From Bacteroidota bacterium (lineage in GTDB: Bacteria > Bacteroidota > Ignavibacteria > Kapaibacteriales > Kapaibacteriaceae), in assembly GCA_018266735.1 (NCBI GenBank), contig JAFDZT010000002.1:172439-236438 (forward strand): a stretch of 64,000 nt of DNA, written 5' to 3'. Under the pieces are notes generated by a model that saw only the letters and a list, made by a program, of their open reading frames with translations, had not been told where the DNA came from and made no database searches. Numbering within the stretch: position 1 is the first letter of the stretch; every line of letters begins with the position of its first letter. Position numbers and translations under genes: made by a program. Shown here in pieces: positions 12,298 to 38,227 of the stretch.

Positions 12298-12449
12298 GTC
12301 TTTTGCTCCAAATTCAGATGCGTTTTTCTCAAGAACAAGCAATATACGACTTTGGTTTGGATCACGCAAGTCGTGTGGATTCATTCGGTTGGAGGGGCGG
12401 AACGGCGAAACCCTTAAATTTGCTTCTTGACCCAAATCCAACCGGCCGC

Positions 12450-32431: not shown

Positions 32432-34609
32432 TCATGGGAGGTTGAACCATGGAACAACCATGTCGTGATCGTCGATCGTGAGCACCACCCATCCATAGAA
32501 CGTCGAGGCATCGCAGAAGAGATCGGAGATGTGTAGTTCACACGGCGTGTTCGTCATGATGCACTGCGGATACTGTCGGCCTCCGACATCAAATGCACGT
32601 ACCGTCACTTGTCGGGACGACGTTCCATCCAGAACAAGACTTCTCCCCCGTCGTTGCATCAGTGTTCCGGCGGACGGGTCGAACAAGCGTGGCCCGGCCT
32701 CCATGCAAACATCGAGTGAGCAGATCCCGAACCTGCCAAGGCGAGGGATCACACGAGCATCGTCGACGGTGAACGAGTCGATCGTGATCATGCTTCGTTC
32801 GTCATCACCCAAGGTGACCATCATTGGAATGCGAAGCACCGTGTCAGTCAATCCTGCGTACGTCGGCATCTGCATCCACATCCATCGCCATGCGCGCGAT
32901 AGCTGCGAACCGGTCGATGCGTCGCGCTGCGGGACCAAGACCGACGCTCGGGTCATCAATCGAAATCGAATGGTCGCCGGATAGCGGATGCTGTCGCGTG
33001 TGGACACATGGATGACCACATCGACGCTGTCGCCCGGACGTCCACGCACATCGTCGATGCGAAACCCCACATCACTGGTGGGCTCTGCACACGATGTGGT
33101 ATCCACTCGCATCGTATCCCGAAACACGCAACCGTCGTTGGTCATGATGGCACAGATCACCTGATTGCGCTTCTTCGTTGGCGTCACCTCGATCTCGGGT
33201 GCATTCAACGGTTGGAGTGCATCGTTCACCCACCAGTCATACTGTGCACCGCCCATTGCACGCACAAGGGCTTTTGACCTTCCGCAAACGGTTGTGTCGG
33301 GGGTGACGATGCGCGGGACGACAAAGGTCGACGTCGACATTGGCAGATCCGACATTTGCAACCGGACCCCATCCGTTCCAGAGCTCGCACCATGACGTAC
33401 ATCGCTCGAACACGTGACATCTCGAGCCATTCCGGCAGATCCGCCAAGGACCGATGCGGCAACGGGGATCGACGTGATCACACGTCCACCTCCCCCTCCA
33501 CCACCCGGAGCATAACAACCGTTCGTTCCGTTGTTCTCGCCGCCATCTCCACCATCGACAACACATTGCGCTGTGCCCACGATCGTTGATGCGAAGAAAG
33601 CGATCGAACCGCCGGCTCCACCGCCACCGGCTCCATCCTCCAGTGCGTTGCGGGCCGTTGCGCCGCGAGCGTCAAGTACGACACCGCTGTCGACGATCAC
33701 AACCGAGGCGATGACGACGATGATGCCACCACCGGCCGCACCTGCCGATCCTTTGAAGTCGTTCTGATGTCCTCCCCCTCCGCCACCTCCAAGGAAGAGT
33801 CGATGTGGGTCGTTCGTTGCCAAAGCATACCCACCACGTCCACGCACGTCGGTGGGGAACAAGGTCGACGGCTGTGTCCCGCCCATGCCGCCTTCTCCAC
33901 CGTTCCCGCCTCCTCCACCTCCTCCGTTCCGTGCATTGCCTCCACCACCGCCGCTCGACCATGGTGAGCGCCCAGCTCCAAGTGCTCGCACTGCCGCCGC
34001 ACTTCCCTCTCCCTTGCGTCCACCGAGACCTGCGTCATCGCGAGTTGCCCAACTCGTCTCGGCCGTGTCCAGCGTGTTGAGACTCACGGCACCGCCGCGA
34101 TATCCCATCCCGCCTGCGTCCAATGATGCGTGGAGACGCAGGGTGTCGGTACATTCGATGGCGATCACGCCACCGGAGGTTCCATTCCATGCTTGTGCCG
34201 TCACAAGGCCGGTCACGTCCGCCGACGTTGATCGCGCCACCTTGATCAGTTGCACGCCGTCTGTTGTGGAGTATCGATGGATCGGGCGATGCGTCAATCG
34301 GACCGTGCCGCCCATTACCGTATCGACGGTACACAACTCCCAAAGACCTGCGTTGGCAACATCGTTGATCGCTCCCGTGCGATCTGTGCGTGACGTGTCG
34401 ACATGCACCCCTTTCATTTGCAACAGCATGATACGATCGCCCTTCTTCAACCAAGCCACGGGCGTGATGCGCACAGTGTTGCGGCAGGTATCGAACGAGC
34501 TCACGGCCGCATACTGATTGATGCGACCACGGAGGTCGGTGGCCTGCGCATCGGCAATGCCGGCAAGCATGATGAAGCCGAGCAAAAGGATGGTCGATGT
34601 TGTTCTCAT
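32432..34609 (-). CDS. Secreted glycine-rich repeat protein of about 725 aa (operon gene 4). Start MRTTSTILLLGFIMLAGIADAQA.
   Basis: Signal peptide. Long G-runs (GGGGGNARNGGGGGGGNGGEGG, GGGGGGGHQNDFKGSAGAAGGG, GGGGGGGR) interspersed with beta-strand-like segments. The C-terminal 60 aa were considered as a T9SS CTD but are not convincing. Confidence 0.5.
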   Translation of the reverse strand: MRTTSTILLLGFIMLAGIADAQATDLRGRINQYAAVSSFDTCRNTVRITPVAWLKKGDRIMLLQMKGVHVDTSRTDRTGAINDVANAGLWELCTVDTVMGGTVRLTHRPIHRYSTTDGVQLIKVARSTSADVTGLVTAQAWNGTSGGVIAIECTDTLRLHASLDAGGMGYRGGAVSLNTLDTAETSWATRDDAGLGGRKGEGSAAAVRALGAGRSPWSSGGGGGNARNGGGGGGGNGGEGGMGGTQPSTLFPTDVRGRGGYALATNDPHRLFLGGGGGGGHQNDFKGSAGAAGGGIIVVIASVVIVDSGVVLDARGATARNALEDGAGGGGAGGSIAFFASTIVGTAQCVVDGGDGGENNGTNGCYAPGGGGGGGRVITSIPVAASVLGGSAGMARDVTCSSDVRHGASSGTDGVRLQMSDLPMSTSTFVVPRIVTPDTTVCGRSKALVRAMGGAQYDWWVNDALQPLNAPEIEVTPTKKRNQVICAIMTNDGCVFRDTMRVDTTSCAEPTSDVGFRIDDVRGRPGDSVDVVIHVSTRDSIRYPATIRFRLMTRASVLVPQRDASTGSQLSRAWRWMWMQMPTYAGLTDTVLRIPMMVTLGDDERSMITIDSFTVDDARVIPRLGRFGICSLDVCMEAGPRLFDPSAGTLMQRRGRSLVLDGTSSRQVTVRAFDVGGRQYPQCIMTNTPCELHISDLFCDASTFYGWVVLTIDDHDMVVPWFNLP

Positions 34610-36009
34610 AGTTGCTGTGCCACAATGATCCATCGTTGCCACGATGCATCGTACCAAAGAAGAAAAGTTCCATCATTCACAGTGGTCACATCGTCACCGG
34701 TCATCGACGTGATCCGATTGATGGCCTGTGATCCGATACCCTCGTGCACGAGCGTGAGGGGAGCACCGCGATTCACGATGAGGAGCACCTTTCCGTCTTC
34801 CCCGCCACTGAATCCCGTGATCACCGACCCCGGTGCGGTGCTCCATACTCTGATCACGCTGTAGGTACCGATATCCACGTTGTGATGCATACCGGCAACG
34901 AGATCGGGAAGAGTGCTCCCACGCATCGAGAAATTGCGTGTCGACATTCCTCCCGACGTGCGTGCATGATGCATGTACGTCGTGGACGTATTGGAAACTC
35001 CAAGAGCATTCATCATGGTGGTCGACAGTCCGGGCGGACGTTCATCGTCGCTGCATCCAAGGACCACCGAAGCACCTCCACTCACGACCAGCCCGAAGCT
35101 GTTGGGAAGCGATGGTGCGACGAGATGCGCAGCGATCGCTCCGTAGTTGCCGGTAGCCGACGTTGTCACTTCACCATGCAAGGCTTCGACCAATCCCGCT
35201 TGCGCTGTGGCCGTCGCCTCCGCGATGGCCTTCACGGCCATGCTCTGTGTTTGCGATCCGCCGTTGCCACCACGCGTCACGGTGCCAAGCACTCCAACGA
35301 TATCGTCGGAAGCGGCGGCGCTGTTCGACGCAGCATGCCCTCGCACACCAACACGGGCTCGAAGCGGCGGGTCGGCATAGGCCGATGATTGCGAGCTACC
35401 GACCAGAGCGGCGCCCAACATGTTGGTCCGAAAGAATCCACCAACATTGTCGCTTCCCGACGTGGTCACATCGATCCCGCGGGACGGCGGAACGGTCCCG
35501 CCAATATCAAGCGCTGTAGCGGTTCCTGCTGACAGTGCGTTGTATCGGATCCCCGTTCCGCCCGTGATGTCGATCCCGGTTCCTAGCGTCGGACGCTGAG
35601 CGTCGGGAGGACCGCCCAAGCGTAGGCCGGTACCGGAGCCGTTCGACGCCGACTGGATGACAATTCCCGCGTTCTCTGTGCCACTCATTCCAATGTTCTT
35701 CACCACGATGCCATTGGATGCCTGTGTGCCGATCATGTCGACCACCAGTCCGTTGCCATTCCCCGCATCGATCGAGGCAATGCGCATGCGCTCGTTGAGT
35801 GCAGCTCCTACGCCACTCCCAACCCCAAGTCGGAGTGGCAACTGCACATCACCGGCCGTACTCAACTGCATGGCCACTACTTGCGGATCTGCACCGACAA
35901 GGAACTGCATCGGTTGCCGCGACCGCAGTGCGCGGGCTCCGAACGACTGTCCACTTGTCTGCACCACGCAACACACGATGGCGATATGTGCGACACACCA
36001 CTTCATCAC
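34606..36009 (-). CDS. Secreted Gly/Thr/Ala-rich repeat protein of 467 aa (operon gene 3), fibre or adhesin-like.
   Basis: Signal peptide MKWCVAHIAIVCCVVQTSGQS. Repeated G-x-G-I motifs (NGLVVDMIGT, NGIVVKNIGMSG, NAGIVIQSASNGSGTG, GTGIDITGGTGIRY, ALDIGGT). C-terminal W-containing tail (…LLWYDASWQRWIIV). Confidence 0.5.
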   Translation of the reverse strand: MMKWCVAHIAIVCCVVQTSGQSFGARALRSRQPMQFLVGADPQVVAMQLSTAGDVQLPLRLGVGSGVGAALNERMRIASIDAGNGNGLVVDMIGTQASNGIVVKNIGMSGTENAGIVIQSASNGSGTGLRLGGPPDAQRPTLGTGIDITGGTGIRYNALSAGTATALDIGGTVPPSRGIDVTTSGSDNVGGFFRTNMLGAALVGSSQSSAYADPPLRARVGVRGHAASNSAAASDDIVGVLGTVTRGGNGGSQTQSMAVKAIAEATATAQAGLVEALHGEVTTSATGNYGAIAAHLVAPSLPNSFGLVVSGGASVVLGCSDDERPPGLSTTMMNALGVSNTSTTYMHHARTSGGMSTRNFSMRGSTLPDLVAGMHHNVDIGTYSVIRVWSTAPGSVITGFSGGEDGKVLLIVNRGAPLTLVHEGIGSQAINRITSMTGDDVTTVNDGTFLLWYDASWQRWIIVAQQL

Positions 36010-36908
36010 ATGCCCATGACGATCCAGAGCAAGCGCTCTGTTGGTCCCAACGTCGTTGATGTCTCGACCGTGATCGTGTTGGCTGTTTCATCGATAGCGG
36101 TGACGCTGGCACTGATCGTTGTGCCGGGCGCATTCATCACCGTCACGAGCACCACATCGCCAAGCTTGACATCATACGGTGTGGTGTTGATCACATGAAT
36201 GTGCTCACCGGTCACCGGTGTATAGCGCCCCTTCCCAATGGCATTCGTTGGCGACGTCCACGACATCACGCCGCCGGTGGTGGCCGTCATCACTTGTCCG
36301 TCGGCCGATGGAGGTGTTGCCGGCAAGGTATAGGTGATGTCTGCAGCTTGTGCTTGTGCCTTGAAGGACGTCGTGTTCGATCCGTCCGCCGTCGGCTCCT
36401 GGAACTTCAATAGCGATGCGCTACCGTAATTCGACAGCAGCACATCTCCCTGCACATCAAGGCTGGCCTTCGGTGTTGCCGTTCCAATACCCACGTATCC
36501 CTGCGTGGGTCCGGCCGTGCCCACAATGCGCAAACGCTCACCTGCATTCGCCGCAAGCACAAGGTCCTGCGAATTGCTCGTACCGATGTACTGCTGACCC
36601 ACGCCCGTTCCACCCGTGGTGATCGATGAACCCGAGAGTGACCAGTACGGCATGCTCGTCCAGCCAAGCGTTGCCGTGGTACCGCTCACGCTGGAAACCG
36701 TGAGAGCTTCTCCCTGTGCACCGATGGTGGCAGGAAGCTCCATCTTGTAGCCCGTGACACCGGTGGTCGGAAGTGTCAGCGACACCGTGGCCGGCTGTCC
36801 GTTGCGCAAGTTCAAGGTGCCCGTCGTGGTGGACTGAGCTTTCGACAGAACGACAGCACTTGCCGTCAAGATCAACACTGTCCATGTTGTTCGCATGATC
36901 CTCTTCAT
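36006..36908 (-). CDS. Secreted tail-fibre-like repeat protein of 300 aa (operon gene 2).
   Basis: Signal peptide MKRIMRTTWTVLILTASAVVLSKAQS. The motif block WSLSGSSITTGGTGVGQQYIGTSNSQDLVLAANAGERLRIVGTAGPTQGYVGIGTATPKASLDVQGDV ... ITYTLPATPPSADGQVMTATTGGVMSW matches, from memory, the recurrent '…N.GIGT..P...L.V.G … LP…G..GQVL.T.G.G.LSW' repeat of Bacteroidota/phage tail-fibre-domain proteins. Its C-terminal PTERLLW motif is shared with gene 1. Confidence 0.5.
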   Translation of the reverse strand: MKRIMRTTWTVLILTASAVVLSKAQSTTTGTLNLRNGQPATVSLTLPTTGVTGYKMELPATIGAQGEALTVSSVSGTTATLGWTSMPYWSLSGSSITTGGTGVGQQYIGTSNSQDLVLAANAGERLRIVGTAGPTQGYVGIGTATPKASLDVQGDVLLSNYGSASLLKFQEPTADGSNTTSFKAQAQAADITYTLPATPPSADGQVMTATTGGVMSWTSPTNAIGKGRYTPVTGEHIHVINTTPYDVKLGDVVLVTVMNAPGTTISASVTAIDETANTITVETSTTLGPTERLLWIVMGM

Positions 36909-36952: not shown

Positions 36953-37708
36953 CTACTCTGATAGCAGGAACCAATGGATTCGTTCTGTGGGAAGTAGGAT
37001 GGCTGCCGTTGTGATCGTGAACGTGCCTGCCATCTCGTCGATCTTCGAAACGCAACACCCGATGCTCTCACCGCTTTGCGAGATCACCACTGCCGTGATG
37101 CGCGAGCGAAGCGTTAACGGCGCCGGTGCTGCTACTGTAAAGGTGCTCGAACGACCGTCAGGTGTGACAACACCATTGATCAAGGGTCGTGAAGGCGGCG
37201 TGGCCGAAATGGTGAGTGTGTTGCCGTTCTTCGTGATGCGTGTGTTCTCATCACCTACCAAGCGAACATTTCCTGCCACCTCGTTCACGCTCGTGACCAC
37301 ACCCGACACTTCTCGGTCAAGAGCTGTGGCCGTTGCAGCATGCTCGGCATTGAGTGCATACGGCACGCTCGTGAGTGCAGTGCGTGGGAACATCTCTTCG
37401 TCATCGTCGACGAGGATGCCCAGGTAGACCGTTCCCTCGGCCAACAGCTCCATGGGAAGTCCGTGCTGTTCACCAAGACTGAGTGCTACCACGCCATCAA
37501 TGAAGTCGGCATCGTACGATTCCTCAAAGCGCACCTCCGTAGCAGCGACCCCGTCGTACCACCGCACTGTCACGCGATGTGACCCTTGCAACGGCGCACC
37601 ATTGCGCGTTGCCATCGCCTGATAGCTGATCGTGTGTGGGAGTTGTGCCACGGCCCCGCTCGATGCCATGAGCATCAGTAGTCCAACCATGGTCTGCTTC
37701 ATCATCAT
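36953..37708 (-). CDS. Secreted tail-fibre-like protein of about 251 aa (operon gene 1). Start MMMKQTMVGLLMLMASSGAVAQ.
   Basis: Signal peptide. The N-terminal mature sequence LPHTISYQAMATRNGAPLQGSHRVTVRWYDG resembles, from memory, the 'IP..I.YQG.L.D.NG.P..G.......YD' N-terminus common to Bacteroidota fibre-like proteins. The C-terminal motif CCVSKIDEMAGTFTITTAAILLPTERIHWF parallels that of gene 2. Confidence 0.5.
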   Translation of the reverse strand: MMMKQTMVGLLMLMASSGAVAQLPHTISYQAMATRNGAPLQGSHRVTVRWYDGVAATEVRFEESYDADFIDGVVALSLGEQHGLPMELLAEGTVYLGILVDDDEEMFPRTALTSVPYALNAEHAATATALDREVSGVVTSVNEVAGNVRLVGDENTRITKNGNTLTISATPPSRPLINGVVTPDGRSSTFTVAAPAPLTLRSRITAVVISQSGESIGCCVSKIDEMAGTFTITTAAILLPTERIHWFLLSE

Positions 37709-37795
37709 CGTCCGCCTCCTGCATGCGTGTACCCCCCTACGGGACCCGCATCCATCCGAACGTGACACTCTGCACTAGATATTTCTCATCGCACT

Positions 37796-37890
37796 CACCA
37801 CTTGTCACTCGTCACTTGTCACTTGTCACTTCTTTTGTACTTCTCATTTACTTCTCTCTTACTTCTCTTTTACTTCTCTTTTACTTCTCC
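37796..37890. repeat. Short tandem repeat tract. (TCACTYG)4-5, i.e. GTGACAA heptamers on the minus strand, is followed by four copies of about 11 nt TTACTTCTCT(T)(T), i.e. AGAGAAGTAAA on the minus strand. The tract is AT-rich.
   Basis: Seen directly: cacttgtcactcgtcacttgtcacttgtcact + tacttctcatttacttctctcttacttctcttttacttctcttttacttctcc. It encodes the C-terminal …REVKEK tail of ORF 37859..38185 and lies about 90-180 nt upstream of the secreted-fibre operon start at 37708. Confidence 0.8.
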
Positions 37891-38185
37891 ACCATAGTAT
37901 CAAACTCCACACCGCACAGATCACCAATCCACCTGTTTCCCGTTCCACCTCGCCATCCCACCACCGTCCTGTTGTTTGTGTATACGACACGATGGCCCAG
38001 CTCAAGAATGCAATGGCCGTGATGAGCGTGCTCGTTGCCGGGACCGGTCGACGGAACGCATGGAGATACGACAACAGCGCCACCAAACCATAGGCGGGTA
38101 TCCAGATGTACGGATCGGGATCGTTGTACTGGAGCGTAGCGAAGGCAACGAAGATGGTGGCCATCGCAAAGGAGACGTAGCGCAT
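37859..38185 (-). CDS. Hypothetical small membrane protein of 108 aa (3-4 transmembrane helices). Its 3' end runs into the tandem-repeat tract.
   Basis: Hydrophobic helices (FAMATIFVAFATLQY, YGLVALLSYLHAF, LITAIAFLSWAIVSY, GLVICAVWSLILWW). Divergent from the aldo/keto reductase gene. Confidence 0.4.
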   Translation of the reverse strand: MRYVSFAMATIFVAFATLQYNDPDPYIWIPAYGLVALLSYLHAFRRPVPATSTLITAIAFLSWAIVSYTQTTGRWWDGEVERETGGLVICAVWSLILWWRSKREVKEK

Positions 38186-38203: not shown

Positions 38204-38227
38204 GTAGATTCGCCGAGGCGAATCTAC
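38204..38227. promoter_or_regulatory. Near-perfect 24-bp palindrome GTAGATTCGCC-GA-GGCGAATCTAC, 14 nt upstream of the aldo/keto reductase ATG. It lies in the divergent intergenic region and is a candidate operator or 5'-UTR hairpin.
   Basis: 11-bp inverted arms with a 2-nt centre, seen directly in the sequence. Confidence 0.4.

Follow-up and report, generated by a model that had tools for sequence, protein, structure and literature searches.

Does a short tandem repeat that lies just upstream of a secreted-protein operon control that operon, or is it a variable spacer that belongs to the gene on its other side? The question is raised by a 64,000-nucleotide (nt) stretch of contig JAFDZT010000002.1 from an uncultured member of the Kapaibacteriaceae (Bacteroidota), hereafter the window, in which a compound repeat lies between a gene for a small membrane protein of the TMEM220 family and an operon whose first gene starts at ATG 37708. 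A sequence-only reading of the window had proposed that the repeat is a contingency locus controlling a “fibre operon,” with changes in repeat number altering promoter spacing or the length of the membrane protein's C-terminus. We consider that there is an even chance that the array is instead a long-lived, slippage-driven, variable-number tandem repeat spacer with no sequence-specific role, any effect of which on the operon would be incidental and graded.

The array occupies positions 37793-37889 of the minus strand (97 bp), where 11-mers run directly into heptamers. On that strand the 11-mers (37889-37828) follow the order GAGAAGTAAAA, GAGAAGTAAAA, GAGAAGTAAGA, GAGAAGTAAAT, GAGAAGTACAA and then a partial AAGAAGT, and the heptamers (37827-37793) the order GACAAGT, GACAAGT, GACGAGT, GACAAGT, GGTGAGT, which in the register of the sequence-only reading are GTGACAA units; that reading had counted four 11-mers where we find five and a partial one. 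Since the 11-mer is the heptamer GAGAAGT followed by AAAA, both sub-arrays belong to one unit family. Tandem Repeats Finder (TRF) places the period-7 part at 37799-37831 (4.7 copies, 92% matches, score 59) and the period-11 part at 37828-37889 (5.6 copies, 88% matches, score 96), an independent repeat search agrees on the 11-nt register, and no other tandem array in the 64 kb has a TRF score above 41; in a simulation control of 60 Markov-1 windows with the same dinucleotide transitions, arrays of at least four copies never scored above 36. The compound repeat is therefore real, as judged by both repeat searches, the simulation control and its presence in independent assemblies. Its units had been described as perfect or near-perfect: near-perfect they are, whereas perfect periodicity is limited to 31 bp for period 11 and 21 bp for period 7, or two to three identical units of each kind. 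The description of the tract as AT-rich in a GC-rich setting is accurate, with 37% GC against 57% for the window, which places it in the lowest 0.4% of 97-bp stretches. The array also matches, within one base, the most strand-skewed 97-bp stretch of the window (maximum 82.5% purine, at 37794). Searches with the unit and its dimer found nothing beyond chance outside the array within the 64 kb; the repeat is not dispersed in the window.

Evidence on the role of the array comes from what it stays attached to. Contigs of homologues and cluster members yielded 14 related loci from uncultured Kapabacteria, 13 of them with an informative array (L095 stops short of it). Every lineage has an array of one unit family directly after the last TMEM220 membrane helix, and its position at the TMEM220 stop was confirmed wherever that stop is on the contig (the window, L006, L001, L089, L090, L003 and L004, from 89% down to 74% nucleotide identity). 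The operon is a less constant neighbour. Between the array and the operon's leader block lie 190 nt in L003 (3751-3930), a GNAT acetyltransferase gene in L004 (3519-3932), an open reading frame (ORF) of 163 amino acids (aa) in L089 (916-1407), and a degraded ISL3 remnant of about 1.1 kb in a population designated P0015 (L091-L095). In all four of these lineages the array is still at the TMEM220 stop and the operon is intact, so adjacency to the operon is dispensable, and the proposed control of the operon by the tract sits poorly with this distribution. The inserted genes of L004 and L089 have their start codons some 10-25 nt beyond the end of the array, and with four independent insertions in relatives the array flanks appear to behave as an insertion hot spot. 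The L003 spacer was considered as a remnant of the L004 GNAT gene and this was rejected, as the two show no similarity. Separately, a HigB-like toxin gene lies on the opposite side of the three-unit remnant array in L091 (1-300).

The repeat itself is highly variable. The 11-mers are absent from L001, L089, L090, L003 and L004, and L092 has at least 21 heptamers. Perfect 11-nt periodicity extends over 74 bp in L006 despite an 11% divergence of its flanks from the window, which would reflect recent homogenisation of the array; in L093 it reaches 61 bp. The P0015 population (L091-L098) shares an identical first operon protein and flanks that are 99.0-99.9% identical over 2.2-3.5 kb, and still its array ends differ: L092 equals L094, L093 has another unit order and number, and L091 has three units and a different upstream flank. 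As in contingency loci, copy number is thus polymorphic between strains, the five heptamers of the window against two in L088 being a further instance. Six contigs (L002, L088, L092, L093, L094 and L097) end in or at the array, as would be expected of a repeat that short-read assembly cannot resolve. As read from these contigs, the tract differs between species and also within one, in its units as well as in their number; the prediction that repeat number can change was correct, and the invariance that had been named as grounds for abandoning it was not found at either level.

Does this variation reach the TMEM220 protein? The tract does encode the C-terminal tail of the small membrane ORF, as had been noted: the last nine codons (RSKREVKEK) and the TAA stop (37861-37859) fall within 11-mer units 1-3, and the C-terminus reads ...WWRSKREVKEK* with its stop in the third 11-mer. 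The suggestion that its length is phase-variable fails, however, as the ORF enters the array and stops within three units wherever the end of TMEM220 is on the contig, and the tail is identical at 5.6 copies (window) and 7.6 copies (L006). It changes only with replacement of the unit type, for example to KRVTSDK in L001. Every unit has a stop triplet and neither period, 7 or 11, is a multiple of 3, with the result that the ORF closes within three units at any copy number. Because each unit is purine-rich with one T, stops occur in all three sense frames, and these, with the strand asymmetry (68-85% purine), are kept in all alleles; on the antisense strand, six of nine analysed alleles are free of stops and the remaining ones have few. 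Antisense to the array, a plus-strand ORF (37723-38022) owes its existence solely to the lack of stops in the pyrimidine strand, and was rejected as a gene since it cannot be conserved given the turnover of the array. A genome scan recovered 79 distant TMEM220 loci of Bacteroidota; as all of these lack an array at the 3' end of the gene, the feature is specific to the present clade.

On the operon side, the array is followed in order by a conserved block, a hairpin, AGGAGG and ATG 37708. The block, TnnnTAGTG and then TGTCACGTTC, is conserved in all lineages. The outer helix of the leader pairs TGTCACGTTCG (37767-37757) with CGGACGATGAT (37714-37704, which includes the ATG at 37708-37706), partners that can also be written TGTCACGTTCG/CGGACGATGA, with the start-codon region as CGGACGAUGA; an inner GC-rich hairpin spans 37751-37723, and the Shine-Dalgarno sequence AGGAGG (37720-37715) lies in an internal loop. 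Over 6 and then 11 orthologues, 90.9% of cells are paired, against at most 50% with the partners slid, and three pairs have compensatory changes. A search of Rfam with 37600-38000 gave chance-level matches (E > 1). The leader resembles an element for translation control in which the start codon is sequestered, and it appears to be autonomous, being conserved and covarying independently of the array. Because TGTCACGTTCG pairs with the start-codon region, the conserved block is most likely transcribed leader, and an inferred proximal start site, should transcription begin in this region at all, would then fall between the array and 37767.

Phase-variable promoter spacing, the other mechanism that had been proposed, is contradicted by this arrangement. 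The array is wholly 5' of the conserved TAGTG block and the covarying leader, and as it does not lie between two promoter elements slippage cannot alter a -35/-10 spacer. Scans found no sigma-70 promoter or terminator in the window spacer and no sigma-70 promoter in L006 or L003; the single weak match, GTGACA-16-GATAGT, is in L001, where the last heptamer supplies GTGACA, and the equivalent hexamers of the window are degenerate (GTGGTG, TCTAGT). A sigma-54 reading of TGTCACG was rejected, the GG/GC dinucleotides being missing. Nor does the spacer contain the Bacteroidota -7 element TAnnTTTG. Across the window this element has 13 matches against 8.3 expected and is not enriched overall; at least four of the 13 (21659, 42616, 49698 and 57353) lie 6-57 nt upstream of long-ORF starts, so the element seems to be used in the present genome. 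The lineage may therefore use housekeeping promoters of the Bacteroidota type, and the studied operon may not.

In the spacer reading that we favour, replication slippage and unequal exchange among GASAAGT units, with or without the 4-nt A-rich insert, would make the array and keep remodelling it in what would be the sole unconstrained gap between the last TMEM220 helix and the next transcription unit. The array would give TMEM220 a stop codon and a short basic tail, both independent of copy number. For the operon it would amount to variable-length AT-rich DNA upstream of an autonomous leader, intrinsically curved in its 11-mer part, and any effect on expression would be graded and not ON/OFF. 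We infer both that slippage is the generating process and that a selected regulatory role is absent. Several observations weigh against this. The array persists at one site in about ten lineages at 74-99% identity, which exceeds simple neutral decay and could reflect selection, and in most close relatives it abuts the operon's conserved upstream block. The last unit of L001 yields the sigma-70-like match given above. In the 11-mer part the A-tracts recur in phase every 11 bp; the curvature predicted there is the second highest in the window, and curved DNA upstream of promoters can activate them. Finally, the hmw genes, the closest experimental analogue, show that upstream heptamers can tune an adhesin gene (PMC2651432; PMC2424069).

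It is that analogue which makes a contingency or rheostat locus, with changes in length, unit type and curvature tuning the secreted AgmC-like operon stepwise, the main, though less likely, alternative. The hmw1A and hmw2A genes of Haemophilus influenzae have purine-rich (TGAAAGA)9-38 arrays 69-106 bp upstream, with 8- or 9-mers in other strains (PMC2651432), and their expression falls stepwise as repeat number rises (PMC2424069). The geometry of the present locus is strikingly similar: taken together, the two cases have purine-rich 7-bp units some 70-180 bp ahead of the first start codon of a secreted or surface operon, with strain-variable copy number and varied unit lengths at one locus. 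The sequence-only reading had put the distance from the tract to the first operon gene at about 90-180 nt, which holds for the TRF start at 37799; the full array lies 85-181 nt upstream of ATG 37708, and the products, the adhesin nature of which is putative, have signal peptides and one AgmC_N-like domain. Variation within a 99%-identical population would suit such a rheostat, the persistence of the array across all lineages argues for some maintaining force, and its last unit can supply a -35-like GTGACA. Unlike the hmw repeats, however, the array is anchored to the stop of the upstream gene and has lost its adjacency to the operon leader in four lineages, a linkage that does not match the hmw type, and its unit sequence is not conserved. 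Where hmw arrays have 9-38 identical units, the window has two to three of each kind and its relatives up to about eight, and the promoter searches of the spacer identified none. The link between repeats and expression was measured for hmw and is hypothetical for the present locus, the operon of which is putatively one of surface or fibre proteins; and in place of a host-adapted pathogen the hosts are uncultured environmental Kapabacteria that live free in soil and freshwater, for which no selective regime favouring phase variation is known.

Curvature is a further argument for a rheostat, as the A-tract phasing is predicted to bend the DNA strongly. In a wedge model, which gives rough estimates, the 11-mer array reaches 52 degrees per 31 bp (window mean 12.7, standard deviation 6.9) and the array of L006 is the top spot of its own locus at 63.5 degrees, while heptamer-only arrays are unremarkable at 24-29 degrees. 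As modelled, strong curvature thus belongs to the window allele but is not conserved across the locus, which counts against a rheostat built on it. Phased A-tract bent DNA is found upstream of promoters such as that of Clostridium perfringens plc. The A4 tracts every 11 bp in the window and L006 resemble it; unlike plc-type bent DNA, they lie further upstream, at about -65 to -120 from the presumed start, and are absent from many orthologous alleles. The predicted curvature maximum of the window is elsewhere, at about 12300-12330, where T/A tracts are spaced some 10-12 bp apart; a TAAATTTG element (12415) and ATG 12451 follow about 100 nt downstream.

Classical phase variation by simple-sequence repeats involves tracts such as the TA repeats between hifA and hifB or tetranucleotide tracts within ORFs. 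The array shares with these a slippage-prone tract beside, and partly inside, genes, but it does not lie between promoter elements and its copy number cannot change the frame outcome, which sets its position apart from that of such switches. Of the contingency-locus proposal, then, the copy-number polymorphism survives and the switch position does not, and the two to three identical units of the window would be few for a high-rate tract, relatives having perfectly periodic runs of up to 74 bp.

A stronger version of the rheostat idea, which we regard as doubtful, is that the array is a selected evolvability module: a long-kept heritable rheostat, acting through its length and curvature, or TMEM220 read-through insulator for the AgmC-like operon that would also be a preferred landing site for genes, the last part being suggested by the four independent insertions that adjoin the array. 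If true, free-living and uncultured bacteria of soil and freshwater would have a contingency locus; to our knowledge, work on variable-number repeats that tune surface genes has centred on host-adapted pathogens and has hardly touched environmental, uncultured bacteria. The locus is in any case a natural allele series, with one site, one unit family, about ten lineages and alleles from 3 units to 36 or more, and it includes alleles with 99%-identical flanks as well as lineages in which the array is uncoupled from the operon. It is therefore a test case for whether such arrays are kept by selection or by mutational drive, and whether their length is relevant to a neighbouring promoter. Should the array prove to be without effect, it would be a hypervariable spacer of the ordinary kind, useful for typing strains of the clade.

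A role at the RNA level seems unlikely to us. Here the array would be transcribed as part of the 3' untranslated region of TMEM220 or as an intercistronic segment, serving as an unstructured purine-rich platform (for S1, Csp or similar proteins) and, by its stops in three frames, keeping translation of the next gene uncoupled. There is no terminator-like site between TMEM220 and the next gene, and folding predictions leave the RNA of the array essentially unpaired and confine structure to the leader. The strand asymmetry and three-frame stops conserved in all alleles would also suit this role, but the stop triplets are automatic in purine-rich units with one T. An RNA-level role, as a platform for an RNA-binding protein or a stop, has been proposed for the TAACTGA heptamer arrays of Beggiatoaceae, Cyanobacteria and Bacteroidetes, which are intergenic and sporadic and for which a role in gene rearrangement has also been suggested (PMC4679880). 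Those repeats can lie directly upstream of starts (PMC4679880), as do the arrays of L004 and L089 before their inserted genes; in the window clade, however, it is the structured leader and not the array that precedes the start codon. The drift of the unit sequence speaks against a specific binding protein and makes RNA-level and regulator-binding roles alike less likely.

For transcription-factor sites, that is, direct repeats on one helix face at 11-bp spacing after the manner of OmpR/PhoB-type boxes or iterons, we see very little likelihood. The 11-bp period does set identical GAGAAGT cores on one helical face, but 11-mers are missing from five of the relatives, and heptamers at 7-bp spacing cannot share a face. 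OmpR/PhoB-like operators and iterons have a conserved unit and spacing in orthologous promoters, whereas the units and periods of the array differ between orthologues; nor does the motif occur elsewhere in the 64 kb beyond chance, and Pfam annotation of the window genes shows no regulator gene adjacent to the array. That the heptamer GTGACA is the reverse complement of an invariant TGTCAC in the leader block is suggestive, but the TGTCAC block is better explained by its pairing with the start-codon region. Clustering of GTSAC methylation sites in the GTGAC units was also considered and dropped, as the 11-mers, the GTGAGAA units and the L004 units have no such site. An assembly artefact or chance low-complexity run is effectively refuted: several short-read contigs do break at the array, but independent assemblies (NCBI, JGI, ENA, Logan) all have it at this site, its 97 bp are shorter than typical paired reads, and its TRF scores are far above those of simulated sequence.

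What kind of repeat, then, is it? Cyanobacterial short tandemly repeated repetitive (STRR) heptamers are a dispersed heptamer family comparable to the TAACTGA arrays. Unlike these families, in which one unit occurs at tens to hundreds of loci per genome, the present array is a single, orthologously retained locus in 64 kb, with a drifting unit. It resembles the mixed heptamer arrays of some Bacteroidetes intergenic regions, which likewise differ between close relatives and break assemblies (PMC4679880). Heptamers are, according to the survey of Mrazek (2007) as quoted in PMC4679880, the commonest class among the long simple-sequence repeats of 5-11 nt in prokaryotes, attributed to polymerase slippage, and the array fits this known class. 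The features of the locus and the alleles of the relatives are collected in Table 1.

Table 1. Features of the array locus in the window, and array alleles at the orthologous site in related loci
Feature or locus	Positions	Strand	Content	Evidence or identity to the window
Whole compound array	37793..37889	-	GASAAGT-family units, 81% purine, 37% GC	TRF, repeat finding, unit parsing, composition
11-mer sub-array	37828..37889	-	GAGAAGT + AAAA/AAGA/AAAT/ACAA x 5, and partial AAGAAGT	TRF period 11, 5.6 copies, score 96
Heptamer sub-array	37793..37827	-	GACAAGT x 2, GACGAGT, GACAAGT, degenerate GGTGAGT	TRF period 7, 4.7 copies, score 59
Conserved TnnnTAGTG block, just 3' of array	37771..37779	-	TCTAGTGCA in the window; candidate -10-like or leader-proximal element	Orthologue alignments
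Conserved 5' leader structure	37704..37767	-		RNAalifold and pair counts (6, then 11 orthologues)
TMEM220-family small membrane protein gene	37859..38185	-	108 aa	Pfam PF15071, E = 7e-17; translation; orthologue alignment
First operon gene (“first fibre gene” of the sequence-only reading)	36953..37708	-	251 aa, signal peptide, no family assigned	Translation
Three further operon genes	32432..36908	-	300, 467 and ~741 aa, N-terminal signal-like sequences	Translations
L006 (Candidatus Kapaibacterium sp. MAG_AAO_H10.30), nearest named genome			11-mer x 7.6 (74 bp perfect) + heptamer x 4.6	89% nucleotide over 6.3 kb
L088			Contig begins in 11-mers, then only 2 heptamers	96% amino acid
L001			Heptamer x 9.6, without 11-mers	88% nucleotide
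L089			Heptamer x 4.7, without 11-mers	95% amino acid
L002			Contig begins within heptamers	83% nucleotide
L090			GTGACGA x 3 + three degenerate units, without 11-mers	78% amino acid
L003			~36 units GTGAGAA/GTGACGA/GTGGGTAAA/GTCAA over 257 bp	76% nucleotide
L004			AATCAAG/AATAGAG units instead	74% nucleotide

The array does lie upstream of an operon, as had been described; this operon encodes four signal-peptide proteins, and the label of a secreted-protein operon is supported by these sequences; “fibre” is an unverified label. None of the four proteins has a match in Pfam, PHROG or PDB. The first, which is 100% identical to MBS1560415.1 of a metagenome-assembled “Bacteroidetes bacterium” genome, has nine homologues among 5.8 billion proteins and no match in NCBIfam, and its AlphaFold2 model (predicted local distance difference test score of 43) is too poor for a fold search. 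The product of the last gene (32432-34657, minus strand) is a glycine-rich protein, the N-terminal 350 residues of which match the AgmC_N-like family NF047640 with E = 3e-58, below the curated cutoff. AgmC takes its name from adventurous gliding motility, and the match points tentatively to an operon for gliding or adhesion rather than for a phage-like fibre. Gene order in the operon is kept in L002, L003, L004 and L089-L094. A metagenome scan with the first operon protein gave no contig beyond one already found, and repeats are absent upstream of two distant homologues of its gene (L086, L087). A neighbouring protein of the beta-lactamase family in the window has a type IX secretion system (T9SS) sorting-domain match, which fits Bacteroidota.

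On the other side of TMEM220, an aldo/keto reductase gene starts divergently at a distance of 55 bp; exact-protein look-ups for this reductase and for the window TMEM220 returned no record. The 55-bp gap between the two start codons contains a perfect palindrome with 11-nt arms, GTAGATTCGCC-GA-GGCGAATCTAC (38204-38227), which is retained, with variants, in L001, L006, L090 and L003 and is probably an operator. The distant Bacteroidota loci fetched via TMEM220 hold other strong short tandem arrays, at L024 1077-1143 and 1579-1623; L039 1766-1886 and 1913-1984; L022 4916-5005; L027 4469-4559; L031 2814-2948; and L041 2905-2980. Some of these are inverted heptamer or octamer pairs, such as GAATGAT x 9.6 with ATTCATC x 6.4, and others, a 17-mer x 7.9 and a 9-mer x 8.4, lie directly upstream of TMEM220.

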